Origin: Ruminococcus albus 7 = DSM 20455
GTDB lineage: Bacteria; Bacillota; Clostridia; Oscillospirales; Ruminococcaceae
DNA: 32,000 bases
Direction: 5' to 3'
Assembly (NCBI RefSeq): GCF_000179635.2
Contig: NC_014833.1
Location: forward strand, 600,001 to 632,000
Shown here: in pieces, positions 1 to 21,626 of the stretch
Position numbering within the stretch: position 1 is the first letter of the stretch
How the letters are laid out: every line of letters begins with the position of its first letter
Translations under genes and position numbers: made by a program
The notes under the pieces: model-generated
Told to the model about the DNA's origin: nothing
The model's database searches: none
What the model saw: the letters and a program-made list of their open reading frames with translations, nothing else

Positions 1-1187
1 TAATGGTATTGACAGCTGTTTTATCTGTATACTCATAGAAAGAAGCATTATCAGGGATAAGCTGAGCTATACTCTGGTACTGTTCCGTAGAGTCTTCATC
101 GCCAAGTCCGATAAATGTTATTTTCTTATCAACTATCTTCTGTGCAACATTTTTCTGAACTTCCTCATCATCAAGATCTTCGATAGGCGTATCGCTAAGA
201 CTTATAACATATCTGCTGTTGTCACTTTCAAAATTGTAATTGTCGAGAATATTCAGGAGCTTTTCGCCCTTGATGGTCTGCATAGTGATGTTGGCAAACG
301 TGAAATATGATCTCTGACTGCAGCAATGACTTGCATGGCTTGTGATCGGTCCATAGCCATTGCCGTGGATATTAGGAAGCTCTGCGTTATCTATTACAAT
401 GTCACCGCCATCCCAGAGGGAAACAGTGTCGCTGTTTGCAATGATCTTAATGTGATGTTCCGCATAAACATCCTTAAACTGGAATTTGCTGATCTCTTTT
501 CCGGCATATCCTCTGTTTCTGAAAGAATCGAGATTCATCTCATCTAATTCATATAATCTCAATCCATCCCGCATTATGAGAACATAATATCCGCTGATCG
601 TGTTTGCTTCAGCATCTATAGTAGTATTAAAGAGGAATCCACCTCCGTTCATACTATGCCAGTCAGTCTTATCACGCTGAATATCGAACGTAAATATCTT
701 CTGAGAATCATTCTTATCGGGAACAAACAGGAAATCCTTATATGGGTCATACCTATATCCAAGCATCTGAATATTTGTATTATCAGATACTATATGTTTT
801 GTATATCCTGACTGCGTATCATATCCCGGGTGATCATATTCTATCCATTCATGAGCGTCTTTCGCAGAAAGGAATGATGTTGAAACATTGCTGAGATGTG
901 GAATAAGTTATATTATCATCCGAAACATCGTTAAAAGGAAGATCATCAGCCAGTGAAACATAGGGCTTTTCAGGATTGATCAAAGCGGAAATATCTGCCA
1001 TTACTGTTTCATAATTTTCAACAGTAACATTTGACAGCAATTCTTCAAGATCATTGTAACCCGAGATAACAGTGTCCCGATATTCAGAAAAATCAGCTGA
1101 ACCATCATCAGTATCACTTAATTCTTCAGTTGTCCGAGCTTTGAGGTCTGAGATCTGTTTGCTGAAATCAGCAACGCTTTTCTCTAG
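1..1187 (-). pseudogene. 3' portion of a large membrane-anchored/secreted protein gene. It runs off the left window edge, is separated from its 5' part by an IS5-family insertion, and carries an internal frameshift.
   Basis: I checked the minus-strand frame triplet by triplet. It is open from 907 to position 2, about 300 codons with no stop. The upstream segment (ORF-track 849..1277, host-derived part up to 1183) is in a different frame and stops at 849-851. The two frames overlap only in 852-907, so a frameshift lies there. There is no recognisable family, only an acidic linker followed by a Gly/aromatic-rich domain. Confidence 0.6.
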
Positions 1188-2289
1188 GGCAACACCGCAC
1201 AAATGACCTCTAAAGCAAGACATACCCCAAACAGATATGCCTGCCCAAGATCCTGTTCGCAGGGCGCACTTTATCAAGCCAGCAAGTTTTCTTGTCAGCC
1301 AGATAAAGATTCGCCAGCGCGAATATCATATTAAATTTGGCTTGTTGTTTTCGCAAGCCACGGTACCGCGTTCGTCGGAATCGGAACAGTCGCTTCACAA
1401 CTCCGAAAACGTGCTCGACCTTTGAACGTACTGTGGACTTCGCAAACTCTTCTATCTCAAAACCAACTGATCATTAGGCTCCAGTTTCTTCTTTGCACCG
1501 CGCCGGCGGTTGATGTGATACTCCCGCCCCTCTTTTTGCTTTTCCTCCGATATATGCTCCTCAACATTCAGATATCCCGAATCTCCGTATATTTCATCTT
1601 CATCGCCATCGATCACGTCATCGACGGCTTCCGTATCGTGTACATTTGCAGCGGTCGCCTTGACGTGGTGAACAAGGCCGGTGTCCTTATCGACACCGAT
1701 ATGCGCCTTGTATCCGAAATACCATTGATTGCCTTTCTTGACAGAATGCGCATCGGGGTCGCGCTGCCTGTCAGCATTTTTGTGGAGGAGGGCGCGGCAA
1801 TAAGTGTCGAATCGACGATAGTACCTTTCTTCAGGATGAGATGATTCTTATCCAGGATGCTGATGACCTGCGCGAATATCTGCTCTTGGATATTGTTGTC
1901 GATAAGCAGCTGTCTGAATCGGCCGATAGTATCGCCGTTGGGAACATCATCGGGAGATGATACGCCGCAGAAATCAGAGAAAGAGCGGCTGTCGAGTATC
2001 TCATACATAACGGCCATATCTGCGAGGTCATAGAAATTCTGGAGAATATGGATCCTGAGCATCAGCTCGATTGGGTATGGCTTCTGTCCGACTTTCCCTT
2101 CATAATAAATCGGAGATATTATAGAAACCCAGTCTTGCCAAGGGATCAGAGAATCCATTTTCTCAAGGAACTGTTTTTTGTTGGTCTTTGCACTCTGGAA
2201 GGCATCGCCGAAGAGTGAGGTTTGAAGATTGCTTTTCATACTTTTATTATATCATTTTTGGGCTGCTGCGCAAGTTGTGCGGTGTTGCC
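1188..2289 (-). mobile_element. IS5-family insertion sequence, 1102 bp.
   Basis: A perfect 15-bp terminal inverted repeat, GGCAACACCGCACAA, lies at 1188-1202, with its reverse complement at 2275-2289. It is flanked by a direct CTAG at 1184-1187 and 2290-2293. The interior encodes an IS5/DDE transposase. Confidence 0.85.
1210..2239 (-). pseudogene. IS5-family DDE transposase, broken into three frames.
   Basis: The N-terminal part (ORF 1613..2239) is MKSNLQTSLFGDAF...LIPW...TLIAAPSSTK. The DDE core continues in another frame after an A5 run near 1775 (NADRQRDPDAHSVKKGNQWYFGYKAHIGVDKDTGLVHHV...), then hits a stop. The C-terminal part, KVEHVFGVVKRLFRFRRTRYRGLRKQQAKFNMIFALANLYLA, is in the frame of ORF 1210..1398. 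Confidence 0.8.
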
Positions 2290-2599
2290 CTAGTTCCTCA
2301 CTTGACTCCACGTTCTCCGGCATATTAGCAAATGCTTCGACCAGTGATTGACTCGCTTTGCCCATATATGTCGTATTCTCTGCCAACACAAGTTCACTAA
2401 CATCTTTGAGTTCCGTATTTGGGAACAAGTCTGTACTGTAATCAAGTGTTTGGGTCAACAAATCAGTTGACTTGGGTTTGCTCTTCTCTGCGACGATCGG
2501 AGCATAGTTATCTCCGACCACATAAACGCAGGTCATTGTTATGGCTAGTACCATAGCAATCAACTTATTTGTTGGTTTGCGCTTGGGTATTGTGTTCAT
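2290..2599 (-). pseudogene. 5' portion of the IS5-interrupted gene (signal-anchor N-terminus).
   Basis: The start is at 2599 (MNTIPKRKPTNKLIAMVLAITMTCVYVV...), preceded by AAAGGAG at 8-nt spacing. If the IS and one CTAG copy are removed, the reading frame joins ...PENVESSEEL to EKSVADFSKQISDLK... in frame. Confidence 0.7.
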
Positions 2600-2975
2600 T
2601 AACACGACTCCTTTCATAGTATGTAAATCCATTAGATTTACAAAAAATATACATTCATTATTATATGGCATTAAGTTTATAGATGTCAAGCTTTGAACCG
2701 ATTTTTTAATCATAATCATGGAAGATAACAATAATCATATAAAACAGATAAATAATATAGCTATTTTAGTAAATTCCAAAAAACATAAGATATTGAATGT
2801 TGTCCAATAAAATGCATTAAAGAGGTTTGTTTATCATTACATTAAATTTTACAAGCAATAATGCAATTAACTCAAAATAAAACTGACTACGCTTGATGAA
2901 ATGCTTCCCTTTTGTTAGACAATGTGGTATAATAGAGATATACCAATTTGAAATCTAACGAAATGGGGCATTTTT

Positions 2976-3275
2976 ATGCCTAAAGGAAAACCAAACAAGA
3001 GATACACACCGGAGTTCAAGATAATGGTTGTGGAAACAATGCATAATGAAAAGTTAAGTTACAAAGAAGCTGCTCGCCAATTTGATGTCTCATTTGATAC
3101 AGTAGTATCAAAATGGGAGCGCATCTATCTTGAAGAAGGTAAAGAAGGATTTTATGTTGAACGTCGTGGGCGCAAATCAACAGGTCGTCCTCCAAAAATG
3201 AAAAAAGAAGTCGAAGAAGACCTCATAGCCGAGGTTCAGCGTCTTCGTGCGGAGAATGCATACTTAAAAAAATGA
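2976..3275 (+). CDS. IS3-family transposase OrfA (helix-turn-helix plus leucine zipper).
   Basis: The protein reads MPKGKPNKRYTPEFKIMVVETM...LRAENAYLKK and ends in an A7 run at 3266-3272, as is typical of IS3 orfA. Confidence 0.9.
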   Translation: MPKGKPNKRYTPEFKIMVVETMHNEKLSYKEAARQFDVSFDTVVSKWERIYLEEGKEGFYVERRGRKSTGRPPKMKKEVEEDLIAEVQRLRAENAYLKK

Positions 3276-3318
3276 ATGCCTTGGTTGCCGAGAGGGTACG
3301 GCAAGAGAGAAAGCAAAA

Positions 3319-4155
3319 GTGATATGGGAACTGAGGCATGAATTCAAGATAGGTCTGCTCATTGATGTTGCCGGAATCCCTCGCAGTACCTATTACTATT
3401 ACAGCAAGCAATTCAATGATCCGAAACCGGATAAGTATGCAGCGATCAAGGAGGATATACGCAGGATATATGATGAAAGAAAAGGACGCTATGGCTATCG
3501 CAAGATAACGAAAGAACTGAGAAAAACGCATAGGATAAACCACAAGACAGTTCAGCGATTAATGCGTAAAATTGGTATATTCTGCCGCGTTCGCATGAAA
3601 AAATACAACTCATTCAGGGGGGAAGTCGGCAGAATAGCACCAAATCTTCTGGTACGTGATTTCAAAGCGGATAAGCCAAATCAGAAATGGGTCACAGATG
3701 TGACAGAGTTTGCTCTGTTTGGTATCAAGCTGTATCTGTCGCCGATCATTGATCTTTTCAACGGCGAAGTTGTGTCCTACAACCTGAATTACCACCCTAA
3801 TTTGAATCAAGTGACCGATATGTTGAATAAAGCATTTGCAAATATACCGGAAAACACCGGACTCATTTTGCATTCGAATCAGGGCTGGCAGTATCAGCAC
3901 AAGCAGTACCAGAAAATGCTCAAAGATAAAGGCATAAGACAAAGTATGTCACGAAAGGGAAACTGTCTCGACAACGCTTGTGCAGAAAACTTCTTTGGAT
4001 TGCTGAAAACAGAACTTCTCTACTTACAGGAATTCTCATCTGTTGAGCACTTCATTTCAGAACTACATTCATACATCGCTTGGTACAACACAAAGCGCAT
4101 CAAGCTTAAGCTTGATGGTATGTCACCTGTTGAATACAGGCTCAACGTTGCATGA
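3319..4155 (+). CDS. IS3-family transposase OrfB (DDE integrase core).
   Basis: The sequence shows ...STYYYY...KPNQKWVTDVTEF...LHSNQGWQY...RKGNCLDNACAENFFGLLKTE...WYN, which are rve-domain hallmarks. The frame is +1 rather than -1 relative to orfA (see findings). Confidence 0.85.
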   Translation: MIWELRHEFKIGLLIDVAGIPRSTYYYYSKQFNDPKPDKYAAIKEDIRRIYDERKGRYGYRKITKELRKTHRINHKTVQRLMRKIGIFCRVRMKKYNSFRGEVGRIAPNLLVRDFKADKPNQKWVTDVTEFALFGIKLYLSPIIDLFNGEVVSYNLNYHPNLNQVTDMLNKAFANIPENTGLILHSNQGWQYQHKQYQKMLKDKGIRQSMSRKGNCLDNACAENFFGLLKTELLYLQEFSSVEHFISELHSYIAWYNTKRIKLKLDGMSPVEYRLNVA

Positions 4156-4362
4156 AAAAAGCGACCAAGATTTCTCTTAGTCGCTTTGCATAAGTTTTCT
4201 TTGAAAAGTTTGTCTAACTTTTTGGGGTCAGTTCAATTTTGAGTCACAGCGTCCGTTTTTGTTTTAATTTCAGATACGATCCTAGTTTCAAATTCAAAAT
4301 GGATCAATTTGGATAGTCCAATTTGCTTCGTGGAGTACTTGGAGTTTATTATACTTCATTAA

Positions 4363-4512
4363 GGTAATGGTTTAGGTAGTGAAGGCCAGTACTCGTATAG
4401 TGCTACTATTGATACAGGAAAAGTAATTGGTACTAAAGGAGAAACGCATATTAGATTAATTTATGATGACTTTGATCAAGTCTGGACTGTCTTTCCGTGC
4501 AAAATTCCATAA
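4363..4512 (+). pseudogene. Orphan C-terminal stub of a toxin-like gene; the ending resembles bacterial EndoU-type domains.
   Basis: A 49-codon open frame has no start codon. It reads GNGLGSEGQYSYSATIDTGKVIGTKGETHIRLIYDDFDQVWTVFPCKIP and is followed 13 nt later by a small ORF with its own RBS. The family assignment comes from motif memory only. Confidence 0.3.
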
Positions 4513-4525
4513 AATAGGTGATATT

Positions 4526-4891
4526 ATGACGATTGAAAATATAATGAAAAAATATGATAGTATGACAATAAATAAATTTAAGGATTTTTTATTTATTGAT
4601 GTAGGTGATATTGATGATGTTGATATCATTGTTGGATTTATAAAGGCGAATGATGAAACAAAAATACAGGAATATTCTGATATGATCTGCAACGATAGCG
4701 GTTATAAAGGTATTTTTTTAGATGGAAATCAGTATATAATTTCAAACGATAAAAATGAAGTTCATATCATAGATACAATTGCGGCTGAATATGCAAAAAA
4801 TTCATTAATCGAGATGGTTTTTGAAATTGATGAATTTATATTCCTTATTCGCCATAAAAAAGAATATATGGAATGGTTCAACAAAAGATAG
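4526..4891 (+). CDS. Small hypothetical protein, possibly an immunity protein for the upstream toxin stub.
   Basis: The ATG at 4526 is preceded by AGGTGA. The ORF-track ORF 4463..4891 would begin inside the stub. The product is a 121-aa acidic cytoplasmic protein, and the DNA is AT-rich. Confidence 0.45.
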   Translation: MTIENIMKKYDSMTINKFKDFLFIDVGDIDDVDIIVGFIKANDETKIQEYSDMICNDSGYKGIFLDGNQYIISNDKNEVHIIDTIAAEYAKNSLIEMVFEIDEFIFLIRHKKEYMEWFNKR

Positions 4892-4926
4892 CGATAATGA
4901 TAGAATGTGGATAGAAAGAGGATTCG

Positions 4927-5019
4927 ATGACTATAAAAACTATGAGTAAAAAGAAAAAATATATAATAATATTGGCAGTTGTTGTTCTGATTGTAAGCAT
5001 TGTTAAATATATTTTATAT
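4927..5019 (+). pseudogene. 5' part of a small membrane-anchored protein gene split by IS1595.
   Basis: The ATG at 4927 follows AAGAGGA. The product begins MTIKTMSKKKKYIIILAVVVLIVSIVKYILY and stops at the IS boundary. Confidence 0.55.
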
Positions 5020-6042
5020 CATGGTTATCCCTTTAACACACCACAGATAATTTACAATGCTGTCCAAATAAACAGACCTCAAAACTCAGAAAATATAGTA
5101 TAATAGTGACAGAAACCGAAAGGAGCTGTCGCTATGTCAAAAAGATTTCCGAAACCTGAGATCACACTTGATGGGATATACTCAAAGTTCGCAGATGAAA
5201 GCTTTTGCAAGGATTTTGTGCTTGATATCCGCTTTGAAAAGGGCTTTGCCTGCCCGTTTTGCGGTGGCTCTGAGTACCGCAGGATAAGGTCACGCCATCT
5301 GCTGCGCTGCAAGTTCTGTAAAGCAGATATATCCGCCACAAACGGAACTTTTATGCACAGAACACATATTCCGCTGAGGCTGTGGATAATCACCGCATTC
5401 CTCATTATGAGCAACAAATGCAGCGTTTCTGCTGTTACGCTGATGAGGTCTTTGGGAGTGACCTACAAGACAGCCTGGTACATCCTTCATCGCATCAGAA
5501 AAGCTATGAAATGTCGTGAAGAACGCTATTTGCTCGACGGGATCGTTGAACTTGATGACACGTATCTCGGTGCTCCGACTCACGGTAAAAAGCGCGGCAG
5601 AGGTACTGAAAAAGTCAAGATGATCGTAGCTTTATCGAAGAACGCAGCAGGAAATCCCGAGTACGTTAAAATGAGCGATGTGCCGAATTTAAAGGGTATA
5701 ACTGTTGGTAGATTTGCCAGGGATAATATCCGCGCAGGCTCGAAGATCGAGAGTGATAATGCTCGGAGTTACAAGAAACCGTTGGCACAGAAATACTTCC
5801 ATGTTTTTGAAACATATGATCCGACAAGCGGTCAGCTGAACTGGATGCATAAAGTTATATCAAACTTCAAAGCAATGATCATGGGAACTTACCACGGAAA
5901 CGAAAAGATCCACACAGCGTTATATGCTGCCGAATACTGCTACAAATTCAACCGTCGTAAGCTGGGAAACAGTGCGTATTTAAGGCTTTTGGCTGCTTTG
6001 GTGCAGTGATCTTACTTGTGGTGTGTTAAAGGGATAACCATA
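5020..6042 (+). mobile_element. IS1595-family (ISXO2-like) insertion sequence.
   Basis: A perfect 25-bp inverted repeat, ATGGTTATCCCTTTAACACACCACA, lies at 5021-5045, with its reverse complement at 6017-6041. The direct repeat ATTTTATAT flanks it at 5011-5019 and 6042-6050. Confidence 0.9.
5134..6009 (+). CDS. IS1595-family transposase (N-terminal zinc ribbon plus DDE domain).
   Basis: Zinc-ribbon motifs CPFCGG...CKFCK are followed by ...ELDDTYLG...ESDNARSY...NRR, the typical ISXO2-like layout. The 291-aa frame is intact. Confidence 0.9.
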   Translation: MSKRFPKPEITLDGIYSKFADESFCKDFVLDIRFEKGFACPFCGGSEYRRIRSRHLLRCKFCKADISATNGTFMHRTHIPLRLWIITAFLIMSNKCSVSAVTLMRSLGVTYKTAWYILHRIRKAMKCREERYLLDGIVELDDTYLGAPTHGKKRGRGTEKVKMIVALSKNAAGNPEYVKMSDVPNLKGITVGRFARDNIRAGSKIESDNARSYKKPLAQKYFHVFETYDPTSGQLNWMHKVISNFKAMIMGTYHGNEKIHTALYAAEYCYKFNRRKLGNSAYLRLLAALVQ

Positions 6043-6050
6043 TTTTATAT

Positions 6051-6521
6051 TATTCTTCTATAGAACAGAAAATGATCAGGAGTTACAATAATAACAGCGA
6101 ATTGTATGCTAAGCTCGTTGATGACTTAAACGATTATCATAATAACGTTGATAATGATGTTTCGAGAATAGAATTCGGATGGGATCCGAAAGATAAACAG
6201 TCAAATGTCATAATGCGTAAAGATTTTGTGCATAAGATCCCAATAGAAAAAAACATATACGATGACTTGGAACTTGCATTGAATACGATCAAAACTTCTG
6301 AAAAAATGTATATCAAGGCATTATTTGATAGTGAACGAGTCACAACAATAGAAATACATATTACAAATTCCCAATATAGAGATGGAGCAGATATAGTAAT
6401 CTATACTGATGAATTGATATATTCTGTTATTCCTGTTGAAAATTTGAACAAAACAATTGCTAAATCAAAACCAATTGATGAAAACTGGTATTTTGTCAGA
6501 GAAAAAGGTAGTGTGGGTTAA
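6051..6521 (+). pseudogene. 3' part of the IS1595-split gene (ORF-track 6072..6521).
   Basis: The frame at 6051 (YSSIEQKMIRSYNNN...) is contiguous and in frame with 4927-5019 once the IS and one target-site copy are removed. Confidence 0.55.
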
Positions 6522-6659
6522 TTGATAATAAAACTGTAATAATTAACATTGATCCTAGTTTGGATAATGTTGAATTTGGTCAACTTATCGATTATTATAT
6601 AGGTGATGATTTGAAAGGGTTTAAGGAGCTTATTACTATACAACAAGGAGAGTGGTAAA

Positions 6660-7079
6660 GTGGATTTTTATGAAATAATTCCAGGTAAAAGTGTTGGCAG
6701 ATACAGTATAGGTGCAAACTACGATAGTATTATTGAACATCTTCGTACTGAAAAAATACCATATAAAACAACCGATAATAATTATGTAAAAAAAATAATC
6801 ACAGCTGATATTGTTTTCTGGTTTAAAGATAAAGTACTGATCCAAATAATGGTATATAATGATTTTAAAGGTAAAGTAAAAGGAAAGGTCGGTATTGGCT
6901 CTTATCTAAGTGATGTTGAAAAGTTCATAGGGAGACCGGAAGAAGATGGACAAAATATCGAAACAATCTACATAATAAAAGATCTTCCAGGCATTTGTTT
7001 TGAATTACAGGATAATGATATTGATGAAGAGTGGAATGAAAATACAGCACCAATAGAAACAATCAGTGTGTTTAAATAA
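6660..7079 (+). CDS. Small hypothetical protein (immunity-like, unknown family).
   Basis: A GTG start lies 7 nt after AAGGAGAG. The product is 139 aa and acidic. It follows a 48-codon start-less stub at 6512-6658. Confidence 0.45.
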   Translation: MDFYEIIPGKSVGRYSIGANYDSIIEHLRTEKIPYKTTDNNYVKKIITADIVFWFKDKVLIQIMVYNDFKGKVKGKVGIGSYLSDVEKFIGRPEEDGQNIETIYIIKDLPGICFELQDNDIDEEWNENTAPIETISVFK

Positions 7080-7116
7080 TAGATGATCGGTACGATTAAA
7101 ATTATTTATTCTGTAA

Positions 7117-7530
7117 TGTGGACAGGGAAAAAACGCACAAAATCTTGGATAGGCAGGAGTCAGGCGGCGTGATGAGCCAGCCCATTTGAAGTTCTTAGTG
7201 CCACAGGTTGGAGGCCGCCTTCATTGAAGCTGTTGATCCTTTGTGTGTTGTAGTAGCCGAAGATGTATCGGAAGATGACAGTTTTGACTTCTTCACGTTT
7301 CAGTTTGTAGGTCGGGATCAGATACAGCTTTTCTTTTTTCAGCGTGGCAAAGAAACTCTCCATACGGGCATTATCATAGCAATGAGCAGTGCCGCTGAGG
7401 CTCTGAATGAGCCCATTTGTTACAATTTCCCGGCAAAAAGCGTAGCTTGTGTACTGGCAGCCACGGTCACTGTGGAGGACAGTTCCTTCGAGCCTGCCGT
7501 ACTTTTCGCGAATTGGTGAATTTATGCGGA
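7117..7530 (-). mobile_element. Remnant (3' end only) of a second, different IS3-family element.
   Basis: The minus strand encodes only the C-terminal integrase core, ...LHSDRGCQYTSYAFCREIVTNGLIQSLSGTAHCYDNARMESFFATLKKE...YYNTQRI. The element end is TGTGGACAGGG... at 7117. Homology is lost upstream of about 7530. Confidence 0.75.
7160..7519 (-). pseudogene. Truncated IS3-family transposase OrfB fragment.
   Basis: This is ORF 7160..7363 plus its upstream in-frame extension. There is no N-terminal half, no orfA and no start codon. Confidence 0.75.
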
Positions 7531-7641
7531 ATCATGATAATATCACGTACAATTTTCTTATATAATTATATTATAGCAAAGCCAATGATTGTATATCAAT
7601 GATAGGCTTTTAGCTTGAAAACGATAAGAAAAGGTGATAGC

Positions 7642-7824
7642 ATGAAAATCGTAGTACATTATCCCACTTCGGCTGAGGGTATCAGGCAGCTTCAAACGAC
7701 TGTTGCCGAGTGCCACGCTAAGATTATCACGGCTCACATTGATGCACTGCCTGTTTCAAAAGAAAAGAAGAAAGAACTGCTTGATATGGTGATAGAAAAT
7801 ATCGCATCGCAGAAAAACGATTGA
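7642..7824 (+). CDS. Small conserved-looking protein upstream of the recombinase; function unknown.
   Basis: The product reads MKIVVHYPTSAEGIRQLQTTVAECHAKIITAHIDALPVSKEKKKELLDMVIENI... The ATG at 7642 follows AAAGGTGA, and a strong terminator follows the gene. Confidence 0.5.
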   Translation: MKIVVHYPTSAEGIRQLQTTVAECHAKIITAHIDALPVSKEKKKELLDMVIENIASQKND

Positions 7825-7828
7825 CCGC

Positions 7829-7866
7829 AAAGACCTCTCCGGACATTCAGAGAGGTCTTTATATTT
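7829..7866 (+). terminator. Rho-independent terminator.
   Basis: An 11-bp perfect stem pairs AAAGACCTCTC (7829-7839) with GAGAGGTCTTT (7850-7860). The loop is 10 nt and a T-rich tail follows. Confidence 0.75.
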
Positions 7867-7871
7867 GGCAC

Positions 7872-7900
7872 TTGACACCTGCTAATAATGATGATATAAT
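7872..7900 (+). promoter_or_regulatory. Consensus housekeeping-sigma promoter upstream of the recombinase gene.
   Basis: TTGACA lies at 7872-7877 and TATAAT at 7895-7900, separated by exactly 17 nt. Confidence 0.65.
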
Positions 7901-7949
7901 ATCCATAACGATATATAACTATTACAAATATAACGAAAGGAACAATAAT

Positions 7950-9644
7950 ATGCCCGATAACAGAAAATACGCAATTTACAGCCGCAAATCCAAATTCACC
8001 GGCAAAGGTGAGAGCATTGAAAACCAGATTGAGATATGCAGGCGGGCGTTGAAAAGCAAATATGATGTAGTTGATGAGGACATTGTGGAGTTCGAGGATG
8101 AGGGCTTTTCGGGTGGCAACACCAAGCGCCCGAAATTTCAGGAGATGATGGAGCGCTGCCGCAATGGTGAGTTTCAGTTGGTTATTTGCTACCGTCTTGA
8201 CAGAATAAGCCGCAACACATCGGACTTTGTGAACACCTATGAGGAGCTGAAAGAACACAGCGTTTGTTTTCGTTCGGTCAGCGACAACATTGATGATACC
8301 TCGCCTATGGGCAGGGCTATGATGATGATAAGCTCGGTTTTTGCACAGTTGGAGCGTGACATTATTGCAGAGAGAATAACCGACAATATGCATGAGCTTG
8401 CCAAGTCGGGACGGTGGTTGGGCGGCAATCCGCCAACGGGTTACAGGAGTGCCGAGACCGTGGGCAGTATTACGGTTGATGGCAAGATACATAAGGCGAG
8501 AATGCTGGAGAAAAATCTCGAAGAGGCAGAGCTTGTCGGGCTGGTGTTCACTAAGTTTGTTGAACTGCGTTCTATTACTAAGGTGGAGACCTATCTGCTC
8601 AATAATGATTTCAAGTCGAAAAAGGGCAACACGCTTTCGAGGTTTGCCATTAAGACTATTCTGCAAAACCCTGTGTATGCCATTGCTGACGAGGATACAT
8701 GGGTATATTTGAACGAAAAAGATATGCAGTTGTACGGTTCGCGCGATGACTTTGACGGCATTCACGGTATTATGGCGTACAACAAGACCATACAGAAAAA
8801 GGGAAGGTCAATGAAGCAGAAAGCTCCAAGCGAGTGGATAGTGGCTGTTGGCAAGCACGAGGGCATTATCGAGGGCAAACGCTGGGTAGAGGTACAGCAT
8901 CTGCTTGAAAAGAACAGGGACAAGGCATACCGAAAGCCCAAGAGCAATACTGCACTTCTGTCGGGACTGCTGTTTTGTGCGTGCTGTGGAAGCTTTATGC
9001 GCCCAAAGCTTTCATCAAGGGTCAACAAGCAGGGCGAGAAGGTATATGATTACCTTTGCGAGCTCAAAGAAAGAAGTCACGGTCTCAAGTGTGATAATAA
9101 GCGAATTAACGGCAACGAGCTTGACCGTCAGATATGCGATGAGATAAAGCACCTGGGCGAGGACGATTCGGGGCTGATGAAGCTGCTAAGAAATTCACAG
9201 AAGAGTTTGAATGAGACATTCGCTGATTCGCAGGCAGAAATCGACAGGCTGACTGAAAAGAAAAAGCAGTATGAAGCCGAGCGCACAAATCTTGTTAAGG
9301 CTTTGACTTTGGCAGGCGAAACTATGGCTGCTGAGGACATCATCTCGCAAATAAACGATCTGCACACTAAGACTTCCGAGCTTGAAATGCAGATATCCGA
9401 GCACCGCAGGCTTATGGAAAACAGCGACATCACCGACGAGCAGTATCAAAGCCTTGCGGATATGCTGTCGTCATTTGCTAAAACTATTGACACATTAGAT
9501 GTTATGAAAAAGCGTGATGTTATACGCTGCTTCGTGCGTCGTGTTGAGTGGGACGGCGAGAATATCCACCTGTATCTTATGGGTGCAGAAAGCGGGGGTA
9601 CTGATGTGCTGCATTCAGAGCCGAAGTGCGAGTGTAGCAAATGA
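7950..9644 (+). CDS. Large serine recombinase, a SpoIVCA-like candidate excisase of the sigK-intervening element.
   Basis: The N-terminal resolvase domain reads AIYSRKSKFTGKGESIENQ...YRLDRISRN. It is followed by a recombinase domain, a zinc ribbon (CACCGSFM...C) and a long coiled-coil tail. The ATG at 7950 follows GAAAGGA. The stop codon at 9642-9644 falls inside the first sigK-homologous codons. Confidence 0.9.
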   Translation: MPDNRKYAIYSRKSKFTGKGESIENQIEICRRALKSKYDVVDEDIVEFEDEGFSGGNTKRPKFQEMMERCRNGEFQLVICYRLDRISRNTSDFVNTYEELKEHSVCFRSVSDNIDDTSPMGRAMMMISSVFAQLERDIIAERITDNMHELAKSGRWLGGNPPTGYRSAETVGSITVDGKIHKARMLEKNLEEAELVGLVFTKFVELRSITKVETYLLNNDFKSKKGNTLSRFAIKTILQNPVYAIADEDTWVYLNEKDMQLYGSRDDFDGIHGIMAYNKTIQKKGRSMKQKAPSEWIVAVGKHEGIIEGKRWVEVQHLLEKNRDKAYRKPKSNTALLSGLLFCACCGSFMRPKLSSRVNKQGEKVYDYLCELKERSHGLKCDNKRINGNELDRQICDEIKHLGEDDSGLMKLLRNSQKSLNETFADSQAEIDRLTEKKKQYEAERTNLVKALTLAGETMAAEDIISQINDLHTKTSELEMQISEHRRLMENSDITDEQYQSLADMLSSFAKTIDTLDVMKKRDVIRCFVRRVEWDGENIHLYLMGAESGGTDVLHSEPKCECSK

Positions 9645-9993
9645 GATACTTATGCATTTTCGTTCGCTGAAAAAGACGGCTAATGATGTATCTATGGAAG
9701 AACCTTCACATTCCGACAAAGACGGCAGCAGCCTTAGTCTTATGGATATGATTGCCGATAGTGAGGACGTTGCGGAGCGTATAGAACTTCTTGTACGTGC
9801 GGAACAGATGTATATTGATCTGGATAAGTGCCTTGATGATCGTGAGAGGGAGATAATCGTTATGAGGTACGGGCTTTTCGGCAAGCCTGCCCTTACTCAG
9901 CGGGAGGCGGCTAAAAAGCTGGGGATATCCAGGTCGTATGTATCGCGGATAGAAAAGAGAGCTCTGGAGAAGCTGAGAAAGGAACTTGGGTGA
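9640..9993 (+). CDS. sigK: 3' segment of a split sigK gene (sigma-K regions 3-4), the counterpart of B. subtilis spoIIIC.
   Basis: NEILMHFRSLKKT...LDDREREIIVMRYGL...TQREAAKKLGISRSYVSRIEKRALEKLRKELG matches my recollection of B. subtilis SigK (CIENEILMHLRALKKT ... ELGISRSYVSRIEKRALMKM). There is no start codon, no RBS and no regions 1-2 upstream. The junction is uncertain by about 20 nt. Confidence 0.8.
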   Translation, partial: NEILMHFRSLKKTANDVSMEEPSHSDKDGSSLSLMDMIADSEDVAERIELLVRAEQMYIDLDKCLDDREREIIVMRYGLFGKPALTQREAAKKLGISRSYVSRIEKRALEKLRKELG

Positions 9994-10125
9994 AGTATGG
10001 TATATAAAATATTGGACGCTGTGAGCTGACAGATGAGATTATGGATCTGAATAAGAAAGAATTGCGGTTGGGATCAAAGTTTTCGATTTCAAACAAATAT
10101 GTAGCGGGTTGTATATGTAAATATA

Positions 10126-10167
10126 CAGCCCCGAAGCGATGTCAGGTCGCTTCGGGGCTGTGGTTTT
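10126..10167. terminator. Bidirectional rho-independent terminator between sigK and the MATE gene.
   Basis: A 14-bp perfect stem pairs CAGCCCCGAAGCGA (10126-10139) with TCGCTTCGGGGCTG (10147-10160). T-rich or A-rich runs sit on both sides. Confidence 0.8.
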
Positions 10168-11581
10168 ATATGGGACATTTTATATTATACTCAGCTAAAA
10201 TTTTAGAAACCGTGTCCATCTGATCTATTTCACGTTTTATGAATACCATAACAACGATGAAAGCTATAAGATCGGAAAGAGGAGCGGCTGCCATTATGCC
10301 GTTTAATCCGAAGAAGTGGGAGAGTATCAGCACCAGGGGTATAAGGAACAGCACCTGTCTTGTGAGTGAAAGAACTGCACCTTTTATTGGCTTGCCGATA
10401 GCTGCGAAGAAATTGGAGGATATCATCTGAACACCTGTAAGCGGCAGCAGCAGCAGGAAAGTCCTCATGAACTTTACTGCGAAATCGAAGTAAAGAGCAG
10501 TTTCCTGGTTATCTGACGAATCGAAGAGCGAAAGCACCTGCTTCGGGAAAACCTGGAATATTGCAAAAGCAATTATCGTAATTACAAGTTCGCACTTTAT
10601 GGCAAGCTTGTACACGCGCTTTACGCGTTCGTACTGCCTTGCGCTGTAATTGAAGCCAACGATAGGCTGCATACCCTGCAATATACCGATTATAATCGCC
10701 AGTACGATGGAATTGACCTTCATTACGATGGTGCTGGCGGCAAGGGGAATATCCGAGCCATAGGGCGAAAGTTCGCCGTATTTTGTCAGTGAGCGGTTCA
10801 TGACTATCTGTACAAGTGTGAGAGCTATCTGTGTAAGACCGTTGCTCATGCCCATTGTCAGGGTGGTCAGCATCTCACGTAAACTCAGCCTTATGTGTTC
10901 GCGGCGGAGAGTTATGCGCTTCAGCTTTTTAAGGTATGTAAGGGCGAATAAGCCCGATACCACCTGTCCTATGACTGTTGCCCAAGCAGCGCCCGATACT
11001 CCCCAGTCAAATTTGAATATGAATATAGGGTCGAGTACGGTATTTATCACTGCACCGATTATCATGGTTATCATGGAATAGCGTGGACTGCCGTCGGCAC
11101 GCGCGAGGTTGCTCATACAGTTCATCACAACGATGAAAGGCATACCCAGAGCGGTTATCTTAGTGTAATCGTAGGCGTATGGGTATACATATTTGGTTGC
11201 ACCGAAAGCCATAAGCATAGGGTGGAGAAACAGCTCCGTTACTACTGTCAGCAGTATACCGAAGCCTATCATCATGCATAACGAACATCCGACTGTACTT
11301 GCGGCTTTCTCTTCTTCATGCTTGCCGAGATACAGCGAATATCTTGAAGCTGTACCTATGCCGATAGCGAGGGTTATAGCCATACATATGGTAGTCAGCG
11401 GGAAAGCCACGCCTGTTGCGGCATTTCCAAGCGGTCCCACGCCCTTGCCTATGAATATCTGGTCAACCACATTGTACAGCGAGCTTACCAGCATGGCTAT
11501 AACGCTGGGCAGTGCGAATTTACACAGCAGCATCGGTATTTTTTGGTACCCCAAAGGGTTCTTTTCTCTTACTTCATTCAA
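10166..11581 (-). CDS. MATE-family efflux transporter.
   Basis: The 471-aa polytopic membrane protein begins ...LLCKFALPSVIAMLVSSLYNVVDQIFIG and has a duplicated 6-TM pattern, as expected for MATE. The start codon (TTG at 11581) is uncertain. Confidence 0.85.
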   Translation of the reverse strand: MNEVREKNPLGYQKIPMLLCKFALPSVIAMLVSSLYNVVDQIFIGKGVGPLGNAATGVAFPLTTICMAITLAIGIGTASRYSLYLGKHEEEKAASTVGCSLCMMIGFGILLTVVTELFLHPMLMAFGATKYVYPYAYDYTKITALGMPFIVVMNCMSNLARADGSPRYSMITMIIGAVINTVLDPIFIFKFDWGVSGAAWATVIGQVVSGLFALTYLKKLKRITLRREHIRLSLREMLTTLTMGMSNGLTQIALTLVQIVMNRSLTKYGELSPYGSDIPLAASTIVMKVNSIVLAIIIGILQGMQPIVGFNYSARQYERVKRVYKLAIKCELVITIIAFAIFQVFPKQVLSLFDSSDNQETALYFDFAVKFMRTFLLLLPLTGVQMISSNFFAAIGKPIKGAVLSLTRQVLFLIPLVLILSHFFGLNGIMAAAPLSDLIAFIVVMVFIKREIDQMDTVSKILAEYNIKCPI

Positions 11582-12125: not shown

Positions 12126-12327
12126 CCCGGGATAAACGGGAAAGACCCCTTACAAAAAATATAAGCATAGGTTTCCTCCTGATGCCGAAAATTATTTTGA
12201 GGCAGAAGCAGAAAGACACAAGCGACCGCGGATAAATATCGGGGCGCGGCAGGATATGGGGTATATATACTTTATGTTTTGCGTGAGCTCACGGGATAAG
12301 TGTATCCGCAGGTCTTTATTGGCGTGT

Positions 12328-12375
12328 AAGCCCGTGTCCTCTGTTTCGGGGGATACGGGCTTTATTTATGCTTTT
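12328..12375 (+). terminator. Intrinsic terminator / attenuator hairpin in the hydF leader.
   Basis: A 12-bp stem pairs AAGCCCGTGTCC (12328-12339) with GGATACGGGCTT (12351-12362), with one G.U pair. It is followed by TATTTATGCTTTT and ends only about 30 nt before the hydF start. Confidence 0.6.
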
Positions 12376-12405
12376 CACATTATGAGCGAAAAGGAGAACT
12401 GGAAC

Positions 12406-13596
12406 ATGGGACTAAACGATACACCTTCGGGTGAGAGGGTGCACATAGGCTTTTTCGGACGCAGGAATGCAGGCAAATCAAGCGTGGTAAACGCTTTTAC
12501 AAATCAGGAGCTGGCGATAGTATCGGATACTCCGGGCACGACTACCGACCCTGTATATAAGGCGATGGAGCTTCTGCCGATGGGACCTGTAATGATAATT
12601 GACACCCCCGGTTATGATGATGAGGGTAAGCTTGGTGAACTCAGGGTCAGAAAGACCTCGGAGGTGCTGGGCAGAACAGACTGCGCTGTACTGGTGACCG
12701 ATTGTACAAGAGATCTTGATGAGAGCGAAAAGCAGCTGATAAAGCTGTTTGACAGCAGGCGCATACCATATGTCATAGCAAAGAATAAATCCGATCTTCT
12801 GGATGATATCCCTGCTGCAGATGAAAAAGAGATCTATGTCAGCGCACTTAATAATACTATGATACATGAGCTGCGCGAGAAAGTAGCTCAGCTTTCGGCA
12901 TACAAAGAGCAGAACGTTCCGCTTGTGGGCGACCTTATCGGTGAGGGCGGACTTGCAGTGCTTTGCATACCCATAGACAAGGCAGCACCCAAGGGCAGAT
13001 TGATACTTCCTCAGCAGCAGGTGATCCGTGACCTGCTGGAGCATGGTGCGGCAGCACTTACCTGCCGTGAGACCGAGCTCAAGAGTTTCCTGGAAAAGCT
13101 GAACCCAAAGCCCGATGCGGTAATAACCGACAGTCAGGTGTTTGCACGCGCGAATGCTGATACTCCGCCTGATATAAAGCTTACATCTTTTTCCATACTC
13201 ATGGCGAGATACAAGGGATTCCTTGCACCTGCTGTGCGCGGCGCAAAAGCGATAGACAGCCTTAAAAACGGCGACAGGATACTCATTTCCGAGGGCTGTA
13301 CTCACCACCGCCAGTGCGAGGATATCGGAACGGTGAAGCTGCCGAAGCTGCTGAAAAAATACACAGGCAAGGATTTCAGGCTGGAGTTTTCCTCAGGCAG
13401 GGAATTTCCCGATGACCTTACCGACTACGCACTTGTTATACACTGCGGAGGCTGTATGCTCAATGCAAGGGAGATGAGCAGCCGCATAATGACTGTTGAG
13501 GAAGCAGGTGTACCTGTTACCAATTACGGTATCGCCATAGCTTATATGAACGGTATCCTTGAAAGAAGTCTGGAGTTGATCCCCGATATTATGTGA
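12406..13596 (+). CDS. hydF: [FeFe]-hydrogenase H-cluster maturation GTPase HydF.
   Basis: GTPase motifs are present: G1 GRRNAGKSS, DTPG and NKSD. The C-terminal FeS motif is EGCTHH...IHCGGC. The ATG at 12406 follows AAGGAGA. The longer ORF from 12256 was rejected. Confidence 0.9.
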   Translation: MGLNDTPSGERVHIGFFGRRNAGKSSVVNAFTNQELAIVSDTPGTTTDPVYKAMELLPMGPVMIIDTPGYDDEGKLGELRVRKTSEVLGRTDCAVLVTDCTRDLDESEKQLIKLFDSRRIPYVIAKNKSDLLDDIPAADEKEIYVSALNNTMIHELREKVAQLSAYKEQNVPLVGDLIGEGGLAVLCIPIDKAAPKGRLILPQQQVIRDLLEHGAAALTCRETELKSFLEKLNPKPDAVITDSQVFARANADTPPDIKLTSFSILMARYKGFLAPAVRGAKAIDSLKNGDRILISEGCTHHRQCEDIGTVKLPKLLKKYTGKDFRLEFSSGREFPDDLTDYALVIHCGGCMLNAREMSSRIMTVEEAGVPVTNYGIAIAYMNGILERSLELIPDIM

Positions 13597-13607
13597 GGTG
13601 ATGTGAT

Positions 13608-14114
13608 ATGAGTGAAAAATTTGTATACGATAAGTCTTCACCCGATGCTGATAAGTATACCGAGGTGGATAAGTTCCTTCAGTTGACAGAACGCTACTGT
13701 AAAAAAGGCTTAGGTGCGATCGCAAGCAAAGTTGGTTCAAAGCTTGGTCTTAAAAACAGTTCCAGACCCTATTCTTCTTTGCAGCGAGCAGTGAAGATAA
13801 TCAATGCCGATGGCATCGAAGGCGTATATGATGATCTCATGCACTGCACACGCGTTGAGCGATGCGATATATTCATTGGTAAAAGCTATCTGTTCCGACA
13901 GAACAATTTCATGTGCCGCATTAAGGATATAAAAAAATGTTATATCCTTAAGGAAGAAAGCGGTGATGATATCCTTTACCATTGTTATGCGGATATCAGC
14001 GATGAAGCAGGAGATGAAACTCTTGAATTAAGAAAACTCAGTGCCCTGAAAGTACAGAGGCTGCTGCAGTTTGATGAGATAAGAAAGCTGATAGGCATAG
14101 AAGAACAGGAGTAG
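13608..14114 (+). CDS. Hypothetical 168-aa protein embedded between hydF and hydE.
   Basis: The ATG at 13608 follows GAGGTGA and lies 11 nt after the hydF stop. The gene is on the same strand as its neighbours. The protein has six Cys and matches no family I recognise. Confidence 0.6.
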   Translation: MSEKFVYDKSSPDADKYTEVDKFLQLTERYCKKGLGAIASKVGSKLGLKNSSRPYSSLQRAVKIINADGIEGVYDDLMHCTRVERCDIFIGKSYLFRQNNFMCRIKDIKKCYILKEESGDDILYHCYADISDEAGDETLELRKLSALKVQRLLQFDEIRKLIGIEEQE

Positions 14115-14157
14115 ACATACGACAGGGAGATAAAATAATTAAAGACAGGGTGAGATC

Positions 14158-15195
14158 ATGAGCAAGGCTCTTATAGATAAGCTGAATAAAGAGAAGCATC
14201 TCGAAAAAGAAGAATGGGTGACCCTTTTATCTGGGTATACCGACGATGACAGGGCTTACGCCGCGGGTATCGCGCGTGAGATAAGTACCTCGCGTTTCGG
14301 AAATAAGATATTCATTCGCGGTATCGTGGAATTTTCAAACGTCTGTAAGAACGACTGCTACTACTGCGGAATAAGACGTTCCAATACCAACGTTCAGCGG
14401 TATCGGCTTACCCCCGATGAGATACTCGACTGCTGTGACGAGGGCTATGAACTTGGTTTCCGTACCTTTGTTTTGCAGAGCGGTGAGGATAAGAGCTATA
14501 CTAACGATACCCTCTGTGATATCGTCCGCAGGATAAAGGCAGCTCACCCCGACTGCGCTGTTACCCTTTCTCTCGGTGAACTGACCTATGAGGAATACAA
14601 GGCTTTACGCGAAGCAGGTGCTGACAGATATCTTCTGCGCCACGAAACAGCCGACAAAGCCCATTATGAGAAACTTCACCCCGCCGAGATGTCATGGGAT
14701 GACCGCATGGAATGTCTTAAATATCTGAAAGAACTGGGATACCAGACAGGTGCAGGCATCATGGTAGGTTCCCCCTATCAGACTATGGAGTGTATCGCTG
14801 AGGATATGCTTTTCTTTGAAAGCTTCAAACCCGAGATGATAGGCATAGGACCATTCCTGCCCCACAAGGATACGCCTTTCAGGGACGAACCCAAAGGCAG
14901 TTACGAATTGACACTTTTCCTGCTGAGTCTGTGCAGGATACTTCTCCCCGATGTTCTCCTGCCCGCAACTACCGCCCTCGGCACGATACGTCCCAACGGC
15001 AGGGAGGAAGGTGTAAAGGCAGGCGCTAACGTTATAATGCCCAACCTTTCCCCAACAGCGGTGAGAAAGAAATATATGCTTTACGATAACAAGATATGCA
15101 CAGGTGACGAAAGCGCACAGTGCCGCGGATGTCTTGAAATGAGAATGAAGTCCATCGGCTACGAGGTAGCTGTATCAAGAGGTGACCATATATGA
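14158..15195 (+). CDS. hydE: [FeFe]-hydrogenase maturation radical SAM enzyme HydE.
   Basis: The CX3CX2C motif is CKNDCYYC. The protein has a BioB-like fold and HydE-typical length (345 aa) and sequence (...FVLQSGED...GAGIMVGSPYQT...). Confidence 0.9.
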   Translation: MSKALIDKLNKEKHLEKEEWVTLLSGYTDDDRAYAAGIAREISTSRFGNKIFIRGIVEFSNVCKNDCYYCGIRRSNTNVQRYRLTPDEILDCCDEGYELGFRTFVLQSGEDKSYTNDTLCDIVRRIKAAHPDCAVTLSLGELTYEEYKALREAGADRYLLRHETADKAHYEKLHPAEMSWDDRMECLKYLKELGYQTGAGIMVGSPYQTMECIAEDMLFFESFKPEMIGIGPFLPHKDTPFRDEPKGSYELTLFLLSLCRILLPDVLLPATTALGTIRPNGREEGVKAGANVIMPNLSPTAVRKKYMLYDNKICTGDESAQCRGCLEMRMKSIGYEVAVSRGDHI

Positions 15196-15950
15196 TAAAA
15201 TTTGCTGTATACGGAAAAGGCGGCATAGGTAAATCCACTATCGCCTGCAATATCTCGGCGGCACTGGCTGCAAAAGGTCTTACCGTCATGCAGATAGGCT
15301 GTGACCCCAAGGCGGATTCAACATCTCTCCTCCACGGCGGCGACAGGATACCTACCGTATTGGATATGACCCGCAAAACAGGCGGCAAGTTCACCCTTGA
15401 CGATGTGGTCTTCAAGACCCCAAGCGGAGTATACTGCGTTGAAGCCGGCGGACCTGTCCCGGGACTGGGCTGTGCGGGCAGAGGTATAATCAATGCCCTG
15501 GAAAGCCTTGAAAAGCTGGGTGCTTATGAGGTATACAAGCCCGATGTTGTAGTCTACGATGTCCTCGGCGATGTGGTATGCGGAGGATTCTCTATGCCCA
15601 TGCGCAAGGGCTATGCTGATAAGATATTCGTTGTCTGTTCGGGTGAGAAAATGTCCAGATATGCGGCGGCAAATATCTGCATGGCTGTTGAGAATTTCAA
15701 GGGCAGAGGATACGCTTCCCTTGGCGGCATAATACTAAACCGCAGGGGAGTACCCGATGAAGACGAAGCGGCAGAGGAGCTTGCGGCTGATTTCAATACA
15801 TCTGTCATAGGTACTCTCGACCGCAGTGAGGATATACCTCTTGCGGAAGAAATGGGCAAAGCGATAGTGGCTTCCGCCCCCGAATGTGAAACTTCAAAAC
15901 AGCTGAAAGCAATAGCCGATGCGGTATACGCTATTTGCGGAGGTGAGTGA
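15192..15950 (+). CDS. NifH/BchL/CfbC-family ATPase, nitrogenase-like iron protein copy 1.
   Basis: The P-loop is GKGGIGKST and switch I is CDPKADST. Both cluster-ligand contexts are present: GCAGRG and DVVCGGF. The start overlaps the hydE stop (ATGA). Confidence 0.9.
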   Translation: MIKFAVYGKGGIGKSTIACNISAALAAKGLTVMQIGCDPKADSTSLLHGGDRIPTVLDMTRKTGGKFTLDDVVFKTPSGVYCVEAGGPVPGLGCAGRGIINALESLEKLGAYEVYKPDVVVYDVLGDVVCGGFSMPMRKGYADKIFVVCSGEKMSRYAAANICMAVENFKGRGYASLGGIILNRRGVPDEDEAAEELAADFNTSVIGTLDRSEDIPLAEEMGKAIVASAPECETSKQLKAIADAVYAICGGE

Positions 15951-15951
15951 T

Positions 15952-17265: not shown

Positions 17266-17329
17266 TTCATAATTCATAATTATTGGCATTGGCGATACAG
17301 TGTCAATGATCATGAAAAAGAGGTTTACT

Positions 17330-18529: not shown

Positions 18530-18541
18530 GGAGTTTTTTGA

Positions 18542-21613: not shown

Positions 21614-21626
21614 CAGATAGAAGAAG

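Follow-up and report, generated by a model that had tools for sequence, protein, structure and literature searches.

The right end of a skin-type element that splits sigK in Ruminococcus albus 7, a host described as non-sporulating

A 32,000-nucleotide stretch of the chromosome of Ruminococcus albus 7 = DSM 20455 (RefSeq assembly GCF_000179635.2, contig NC_014833.1, positions 600,001 to 632,000 of the forward strand; hereafter the window, numbered from its first letter) carries a gene for a large serine recombinase (LSR) whose end runs into a segment encoding only the C-terminal part of the sigma factor SigK. Skin elements, which intervene in sigK, are a textbook programmed DNA rearrangement. 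As set out below, the window contains the right end of a skin-type integrative element of R. albus, and the model as a whole, including the steps by which the element would be excised, appears highly probable. Loci and proteins retrieved for comparison are designated by L and P numbers. The features at the right end of the element are as follows.

7642..7824, plus strand: ORF60, an open reading frame (ORF) of 60 aa, candidate recombination directionality factor, with an AAGGTG ribosome-binding site and a predicted two-helix hairpin
7830..7866, plus strand: terminator-like hairpin separating ORF60 from the LSR gene (AAGACCTCTC and GAGAGGTCTT on either side of a 10-nt loop, followed by TATATTT)
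7872..7900, plus strand: sigma-70-type promoter for the LSR gene, TTGACA-17 nt-TATAAT, its -10 box extended by TG (all 12 consensus positions match)
7950..9644, plus strand: LSR, integrase/excisionase catalytic subunit, 564 aa (ATG 7950, TGA 9642-9644)
9618..9663, plus strand: attR, with the P arm GAGCCGAAGTGCGAGTGTAGCA at 9618-9639, the central AA at 9640-9641 and the B' arm from 9642
9640..9993, plus strand: sigK 3' segment, codons 114-230 of the rejoined gene (sigma regions 3-4) and the stop codon, matched by NCBIfam SigK models

The 564-aa protein has the catalytic serine domain, recombinase domain and zinc ribbon that characterise large serine recombinases: the Pfam models Resolvase, Recombinase and Zn_ribbon_recom are all matched across their full length, and a PHROG integrase family is matched with E = 6e-110. 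The catalytic-serine motif AIYSRKS occupies residues 8-14, and in an alignment of the family S11, R12 and S14, a YRLDRISR motif and the zinc-ribbon cysteines are invariant. PDB entry 9dxd, from the SPbeta SprA/SprB comparison, shows a distant likeness restricted to the catalytic domain (E = 1e-8). Across the R. albus lineages the LSR has a dN/dS of 0.06-0.14, denoting purifying selection. Gene callers start the gene at TTG 7821, giving a protein of 607 aa, and the 564-aa form had no exact database match; the location of the promoter at 7872-7900 argues that ATG 7950 is the true start. This promoter is kept in four of five lineages, and a 20-nt deletion in L037 leaves a weaker one. Taken with the parallel of CD1231 in Clostridioides difficile, it suggests that expression of the LSR is probably constitutive.

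The adjoining segment at 9640-9993 reads NEILMHFRSLKK…RALEKLRKELG in a frame other than that of the LSR and corresponds to no more of the NCBIfam SigK models than positions ~108-227, with 142 bits for SigK against 97 bits for SigE. An earlier note on this DNA, made from the sequence alone, had proposed that a 564-aa LSR adjoins a fragment holding sigK regions 3-4, and the Pfam, PHROG and NCBIfam matches bear this out. The same note called the fragment start-less. As a literal statement this does not hold, since in-frame ATG codons occur at 9604 and 9652; what stands is that, in homologues, the residues before N-E-I-L-M are only the 3' end of the LSR gene or the att arm read in another frame. 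Almost all of the nearest homologues from outside R. albus begin exactly at xANEILM. The protein annotated from ATG 9604 (129 aa; P0001) is identical to ADU21089.1 / WP_013497280.1 of R. albus 7. Nearly all of the best 120 homologues of either sigK half end or begin at the CVE/NEILM point; the break had been given as CIE/NEILMH, which needs correction, the residue before it being V (CVE/NEILMH). In comparison with L037, a locus of a second R. albus lineage, the sigK 3' half shows a dN/dS of 0.05 at a dS of 0.77, again indicative of purifying selection.

A tblastn search with N-terminal halves of sigK found no 5' half on either strand of the 32-kb window, and, as had been anticipated, the element passes the window's left edge, the 5' fragment lying elsewhere on the chromosome. 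The same DNA is present in other R. albus assemblies, whose contigs stop in insertion sequences just left of the LSR gene. The missing half was reached through a metagenome scan with the LSR, which led to L055, a contig with an intact sigK whose product is 74% identical to that of R. albus in its C-terminal half. With its N-terminal half as query, 127-aa fragments ending …GSRCVENATQSQRTFSCQMM were returned, and expansion of their cluster gave P0362; a search for N-terminal homologues seeded with R. flavefaciens did not have R. albus among its best 120 matches. P0362, of 127 aa, is ADU21055.1 / WP_013497247.1, and is encoded on the same 3,685,408-bp chromosome of R. albus 7 as ADU21089.1. Thus the fragment on whose presence in the genome the earlier note had made its interpretation depend is found, and no intact second sigK of R. 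albus, on whose absence it equally depended, is among the closest homologues of either half. ADU21055.1 and ADU21089.1 are 34 accession numbers apart, with 33 annotated proteins between them, from which the element in strain 7 would be roughly 30-40 kb long with ~33 genes. Accession order and the arrangement in relatives also suggest that the two halves share one orientation in this strain. R. albus SY3 and further isolates carry both halves too, and sigK is split in every R. albus isolate sampled.

When the halves are rejoined at the central AA (AGA TGT GTT GAA AAT GAG ATA CTT), the frame is maintained and a protein of 113 + 117 = 230 aa results. Its alignment with P0358 and P0381, intact SigK proteins of 230 aa from related ruminococci, is gap-free, with identities of 87% and 85% respectively to which the two halves contribute equally. 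The NCBIfam SigK subfamily NF004471 gives a single end-to-end match of 288.7 bits (cut-off 252); the score against the equivalog TIGR02846, 283.1 bits, is slightly below the cut-off of 298.65, and the SigE models give 210.7 and 200.6 bits (cut-offs 339 and 349). In L072 sigK is uninterrupted, its attB reading TGTGTCGAAAACGAGATACTC, and this locus shares with the 5'-fragment loci L065 and L066 its upstream neighbours, a gene for an FctA protein of ~1,880 aa and an N_methyl pilin-like gene. The comparison with an uninterrupted sigK of a relative that the earlier note had proposed, here with L072, P0358 and P0381, thus serves to define attL and attR and yields a full-length product. A split sigK with no intact copy seen, in-frame rejoining, a SpoIVCA-like LSR at the edge and paired att sites are among the marks of a skin element, and these four are found here.

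L055 presents a different picture. At 3900-5671 of this contig (JGI metagenome contig Ga0129310_1002701) an intact sigK lies ~50 nt downstream of a degraded, near-identical LSR gene of R. albus type, with internal deletions and frameshifts, and fragments of the GH9 cargo described below are found further upstream. The L055 sigK is without the AA core, as its E codon is GAG. Allele replacement by recombination and chimeric assembly are both possibilities for the presence of these remnants upstream of a whole sigK.

The attR site was placed by comparison of attL, attR and attB in two complete relatives, L006 and L011, together with an attL of R. albus type (L066) and the intact attB of L072. The ends of L006 and L011 give attB as TGT ATT GA[A A]AT GAR ATA, encoding C-I-E-N-E-I, and allow a near-palindromic attP to be deduced, e.g. 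GAGCCATTGTGTGAGTGCTGCA[AA]TGCAGCACTCACGCCACGGCTC. The arms are symmetric about an AA that is not itself a palindrome; its first A ends the Glu codon and its second begins the Asn codon. On the contigs that encode exactly P0362 (L066-L071), attL reads TGTGTTGA[AA]TGCTACACAATCACAACGGACA, and its 8-nt inner arm TGCTACAC exactly mirrors the P arm in the window, ...GTGTAGCA[AA]. In attL and attR alike the central AA lies inside a common AAATG; each arm, P and P', spans 22 nt, of which the inner 8 are perfectly symmetric. On the host side of attR the B' arm starts TGAGATACTTATGCAT... (9642-9663; also read as TGAGATAC… from 9642). No P'-arm-like sequence occurs in the window or in the R. albus LSR loci. 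As candidate att-site relatives the nearest phage integrases (36-42% identity) were rejected, for their attP palindromes differ, and two matches from an attP scan of IMG/VR were taken as chance, their arm symmetry being no more than the pattern demanded.

The att comparison also confirms that the attachment site occupies the extreme 3' end of the LSR ORF, as the earlier note had deduced. The P arm of attR encodes the C-terminal LSR residues ...E P K C E C S K, and the conserved outer GAGCC of that arm corresponds to a conserved Glu-Pro close to the LSR C-terminus. The TGA stop at 9642-9644, rightly described before as overlapping the first sigK codons, is host sequence (AA/TGA G; sigK codons AAT GAG). 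Where the host reads AAC GAG, a synonymous difference seen for example in L037 (~9990-10035), the LSR is 14 codons longer, at 578 aa. After excision the ORF, now in the circle, would be expected to read on into the P' arm. Thus the LSR C-terminus varies with the integration state, its stop being supplied by host sigK when the element is integrated.

Elements at the same site are found in other species. In L006, which is complete, a 115-aa 5' sigK fragment is followed by ~9 kb of cargo (helix-turn-helix (HTH), Ser/Thr kinase, AbiTii and Rep genes), a 568-aa LSR and the 3' sigK fragment; in L011, also complete, a 118-aa 5' fragment is followed by a ~7 kb peptide/ABC-transporter-like cluster, a 543-aa LSR and the 3' fragment. 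The junction in both is CIE/NEILM, at the point found in the window. The LSRs at the identical sigK site in L006, L011 and L013 are 48-52% identical to that of the window, with which they share a C-terminal EP..E..K motif. An attL pattern scan of 185,579 species genomes, which demanded the outer arm CGGCTC, returned 22 species, among them Oscillospiraceae, an R. flavefaciens metagenome-assembled genome, Ruminiclostridium, Defluviitaleaceae, Pseudoflavonifractor and Intestinimonas; R. albus was absent, the scan having missed it because its outer arm is CGGACA. Together these loci make up a large family of sigK-intervening elements in Ruminococcaceae and Oscillospiraceae that had not been catalogued before and in which a candidate directionality factor is conserved.

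A differently arranged element occurs in L046 (1632-3753), where a 51%-identical LSR is found at the attL end, its gene converging on the 5' sigK fragment, at the same CIE/N site. Its attL reads TGTATCGA[AA]AGCGACCCTATCATTACGGCTT, and the orientation of the LSR gives it a B. subtilis-like polarity. Both int-attP polarities therefore occur at the CIE/N site.

The pattern of divergence between R. albus lineages shows that the element has moved. Between the window and the second lineage (L037, L038) the conserved block is limited to 7512-9996. Within it ORF60 and the LSR are 97-100% identical (LSR dS 0.03-0.05), and from ~9640 on, the sigK 3' half is 74-90% identical (dS 0.77-0.84). The attL end behaves in the same way: between L066 and L065 identity is 67-84% in the sigK 5' half and 95-99% in the DNA immediately inside attL. 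These breaks in divergence coincide with the deduced crossover points, which implies that the same element entered lineages with long-diverged sigK genes, or was exchanged between them. Moreover, protein clusters of at least 90% identity hold both split (127-aa) and intact (229-230-aa) sigK alleles. Such nucleotide comparisons indicate that the element has spread recently and that it is mobile, or was so until recently.

Upstream of the LSR gene, ORF60 is 95-100% identical in amino acid sequence in all R. albus-lineage loci, and the hairpin at 7830-7866 that separates the two genes is kept in five R. albus-lineage sequences. An AlphaFold2 model of the protein is a two-helix hairpin with a pLDDT (model confidence score) of 86; neither Pfam nor PHROG gave a match, and a Foldseek search of the PDB with the model gave none that was significant. 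A hidden Markov model of ORF60 homologues detected a member in 10 of 15 informative loci, these being attL-anchored loci of other species with at least 1 kb of element sequence. The homologues lie 160-3050 nt inside attL, mostly 160-800, and are opposite in strand to sigK in nine of the ten cases. From this position just inside attL, the homologue in the circular form would flank attP on the side opposite the LSR gene.

A strict sigma-E-type promoter pattern (kmATAww, 13-15 nt, CATAyAnT) had five matches in the 1.5 Mb of fetched sequence, and two of the five are directly upstream of ORF60 homologues, in L017 (6079-6108; GCATATT-15-CATATAGT) and L022 (2746-2775; TCATATT-15-CATACATT), both being near-consensus. 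Relaxed matches are found upstream of the homologues in L014, L018 and L027. Directionality factors are small proteins whose genes adjoin int or attP; they bind the LSR and turn it towards attL x attR recombination. From its size, its tandem position, the linkage of its homologues to attL and these promoter-like sequences in relatives, it is plausible that ORF60 is the directionality factor of the element. A further strict match, in L011 (19580-19607), lies just upstream of a small acid-soluble spore protein gene (19647-19835), and is probably coincidence or a product of the looseness of the pattern. A CTTGAAAA box at 7606-7625 of the window, ~20-30 nt before the ORF60 start, is found also upstream of the homologues in L019 and L031, from distant species.

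The excision of the element may be envisaged as follows. The recombination unit in the window would consist of ORF60 as candidate factor, the LSR expressed from its sigma-70-type promoter, and attR overlapping the end of the LSR gene. The LSR would synapse attR with the attL at the end of the 127-aa 5' sigK fragment, and strand exchange at the central AA would release a circle carrying attP. Codon 113 (GAA, Glu) would thereby be rejoined to codon 114 (AAT, Asn) to give the in-frame 230-aa sigK. The predicted excision junctions are …TGTGTTGAAAATGAGATACTT… for attB and …GTGTAGCAAATGCTACAC… for attP. By analogy with the B. subtilis and C. difficile skins (skinBs and skinCd), the small factor would license excision, the LSR itself probably being constitutive. 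We infer that excision still occurs and that it would be tied to a sporulation-like programme in a nominally asporogenous species.

The chief alternative is that the element is a site-specific island for which sigK is merely the preferred attB, sigma-K being dispensable and excision serving transfer alone, with no developmental switch. The observations that weigh against the skin-type model are best considered alongside it. R. albus 7 is classified as a Spo0A+ non-spore-former (PMC3533761; supplement of 10.1101/2022.02.25.481979). It is listed as lacking spoIIM, spoIIR, spoIIIE, spoVE and other core genes (PMC3533761) and has 93 of 237 sporulation COGs, compared with 140 in R. cellulolyticum (supplement of 10.1101/2022.02.25.481979), so that with this incomplete gene set the developmental trigger may no longer exist. 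An island would also account for mobility between lineages with coexisting intact and split alleles, for the sigma-70-type promoter of the LSR gene and for the insertion sequence copies that have accumulated and litter the element's interior. No sigma-E- or sigma-K-like, mother-cell promoter is recognisable upstream of R. albus ORF60, whose upstream region adjoins an IS3 remnant. Against an island stand the open frames kept by both sigK halves, which have diverged like a selected gene (omega 0.05), the split state in every R. albus isolate sampled, and the sigma-E-type promoters at the small ORF in relatives, which point to a sporulation-coupled origin of the family. The signal of purifying selection in sigK may, in turn, largely predate the recent insertion. 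Other points unfavourable to the skin-type model concern its details: no more than 14 of the 22 positions agree between the P and P' arms, the R. albus attL has CGGACA as its outer P' arm where the family consensus is CGGCTC, an ORF60 homologue was not detected in the fully sequenced element of L011, and no excision junction, attB or attP, was observed from an R. albus 7-type strain. On balance we hold a purely transfer-related island to be a serious possibility, albeit one that falls short of an even chance.

Going beyond the skin-type model itself, it might be supposed that R. albus retains a working sigma-K switch, whether for cryptic sporulation or for a sigma-K-dependent terminal differentiation, that the ORF60 family is the directionality factor of the commonest class of skin in Oscillospiraceae and Ruminococcaceae, and that these elements ferry fitness genes of the GH9 cellulase type. 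This wider proposal is speculative and, taken as a whole, rather unlikely.

It is far less likely that the sigK 3' segment is a dead remnant whose 5' half has been lost or whose att sites have decayed. In none of the R. albus-lineage loci do the 10 kb upstream contain a 5' half, the first attL scan did not return R. albus, and in L037 the DNA left of the cellulase gene is unlike that of the attL-carrying contigs. For R. albus 7-type strains this explanation is already contradicted by the 5' fragment and its cognate attL on the R. albus 7 chromosome; the frames are intact, the joined product is a full-length SigK, and the scan's failure is explained by the CGGACA arm. Single strains, for example of the L037 lineage, could carry a dead remnant if their assemblies lack the 5' fragment. 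Least credible of all is that the 129-aa ORF (9604-9993) encodes a stand-alone sigma region 4-only protein, as GenBank annotates it on the strength of an in-frame ATG at 9604 after a GGGGG run and under the label 'sigma-70 family RNA polymerase sigma factor': the residues before NEILM vary freely, tracking the LSR or att arm in another frame, homology to SigK begins exactly at the crossover, and relatives have full-length alleles.

The remaining features of the element's interior, which occupies positions 1-7520 of the window and is by Pfam rich in insertion sequences (IS), and of its right flank are listed here.

1616-2239, minus strand: IS5-like DUF772 transposase fragment (Pfam), which appears to split an ORF at 852-1277 / 2255-2731 (minus strand)
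2976-4155, plus strand: IS3 orfA/orfB (Pfam)
5134-6009, plus strand: IS1595 (Pfam)
7163-7519, minus strand: IS3 rve remnant (Pfam)
4463-4891, 6072-6521 and 6660-7079: small ORFs without assigned function
10124..10162, plus strand: intrinsic terminator-like hairpin 3' of sigK, common to the convergent MATE gene (17-bp stem, then a T run)
10166-11581, minus strand: MATE transporter gene (Pfam)

The G+C content of 1-7520 is 30-47%, compared with ~50% on the element's right side, and short-read contigs of the same strain (L003, L005) end at the IS1595 copy. The left end is represented in R. albus 7-type contigs (L066, 10438-18500), where an XRE-type HTH gene adjoins attL and is accompanied further in by a WapI-like immunity gene, a gene for a 999-aa GH9 cellulase, an Imm11 gene and others. 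The cellulase region is ~90% identical in L037, where it lies 2.4 kb from the LSR gene. From one family member to the next the cargo is unrelated. To the right of sigK and the MATE gene, outside the element, 12256-23939 (plus strand) holds a cluster of HydF-like GTPase, radical-SAM, NifH-like and nitrogenase-component-1-like (Oxidored_nitro) genes, which is syntenic across all R. albus loci.

The element is of interest on several grounds. An apparently intact switch is found in a major rumen cellulose degrader regarded as asporogenous, and the element carries a GH9 cellulase gene and toxin-immunity genes between strains. Interruption at CVE/NEILM is close to the rule in metagenome ruminococci and Oscillospiraceae. 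Automated annotation is affected as a result, the halves being usually mislabelled as separate 'sigma-70 family' or 'FliA' proteins. The LSRs, their defined 46-bp att sites and the candidate directionality factors could, in addition, become genome-engineering tools for gut Clostridia.

Skin elements have been described in 15 species, at sizes of 2.6-48 kb, and have only the recombinase in common (Galperin et al. 2022; 10.1101/2022.02.25.481979), with which the unrelated cargo found here agrees. R. albus 7 belongs to the genome set of that study and is absent from its Table S7 (10.1101/2022.02.25.481979). The earlier note had allowed that the position of the LSR and the break point might both differ from those of described elements, and neither expectation is borne out. 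An LSR directly upstream of the 3' fragment is the usual layout in the 15 skins (10.1101/2022.02.25.481979) and is found in skinCd (PMC5025042). Most fragment lengths in Table S7 are about 114-139 + 113-138 aa (10.1101/2022.02.25.481979), which places the break of most described skins, that of B. subtilis included, in the same region of sigK as in R. albus. A downstream site is used in C. difficile (130 + 89 aa), C. tetani (150 + 95 aa) and Pelosinus (152 + 95 aa) (Table S7), and phiS63 has the core GTAATGAAAT at nt 427 (PMC3442830), which may be read as a G-N-E-I motif. From these fragment lengths the R. albus break point would belong to the majority class and differ only from that of the C. 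difficile/C. tetani/C. perfringens class.

SkinCd, of C. difficile 630, has its LSR, CD1231, at the element's edge, upstream of and co-oriented with the 3' sigK fragment, and transcribes it from a housekeeping-type, sigma-A promoter (PMC5025042); R. albus resembles it in both respects, its promoter being predicted from sequence. Excision of skinCd requires a separate small factor, CD1234, which is governed by sigma-E and SpoIIID (PMC5025042). The insertion in skinCd, as in the C. tetani element skinCt and in phiS63, is however ~30 codons downstream of the R. albus site. A pro-sequence is missing from C. difficile SigK, whereas the 5' fragment of R. albus is extended at its N-terminus, and CD1234 has about 110 aa and lies three genes off, whereas ORF60 has 60 aa and is adjacent.

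SigK of B. subtilis has 242 aa. The skinBs fragments of 129 + 138 aa in strain 168 would, from these lengths, place the junction between codons 104 and 129, in the region used in R. albus. Like the candidate ORF60 of R. albus, the gene for a small factor (skr, 64 aa) is in tandem immediately upstream of the recombinase gene, spoIVCA (PMC6957869), and a short core is flanked by imperfect inverted repeats of ~21 bp (PMC5025042). SkinBs differs in that its LSR is oppositely oriented and lies at the end bearing the 5' fragment, skr and spoIVCA overlap over 101 nt, spoIVCA is sigma-E dependent and the element is a 48-kb defective prophage.

SprA and SprB of SPbeta, inserted in spsM, provide another developmentally excised system with an LSR and a small directionality factor (PMC4191935, PMC6957869). 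In SPbeta and phi3T the integrase gene, attP and the directionality factor gene are adjacent in the circle (int-attP-rdf; PMC6957869), an arrangement which fits ORF60 homologues inside attL and an LSR at attR. SPbeta differs in its target gene and in being an active phage, and the sequence similarity is only distant.

Further counterparts are the skins of two Oscillospiraceae, Caproiciproducens sp. NJN-50 and Ruminiclostridium cellulolyticum H10, with fragments of 114 + 114 and 138 + 128 aa (Table S7). In these an LSR of 552-562 aa adjoins and is co-oriented with the 3' fragment, the arrangement seen in R. albus; they are 6.6-12 kb long, with unrelated cargo. As far as their descriptions can be compared, they look like members of the same class as the R. 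albus element, L006 and L011, and their hosts, unlike R. albus, are spore-formers. The R. albus element is, in this comparison, one more skin element of known type, to which the asporogenous host, the linked 60-aa candidate directionality factor and the cargo with a cellulase are new, and it is the host, described as non-sporulating, that makes it unusual.

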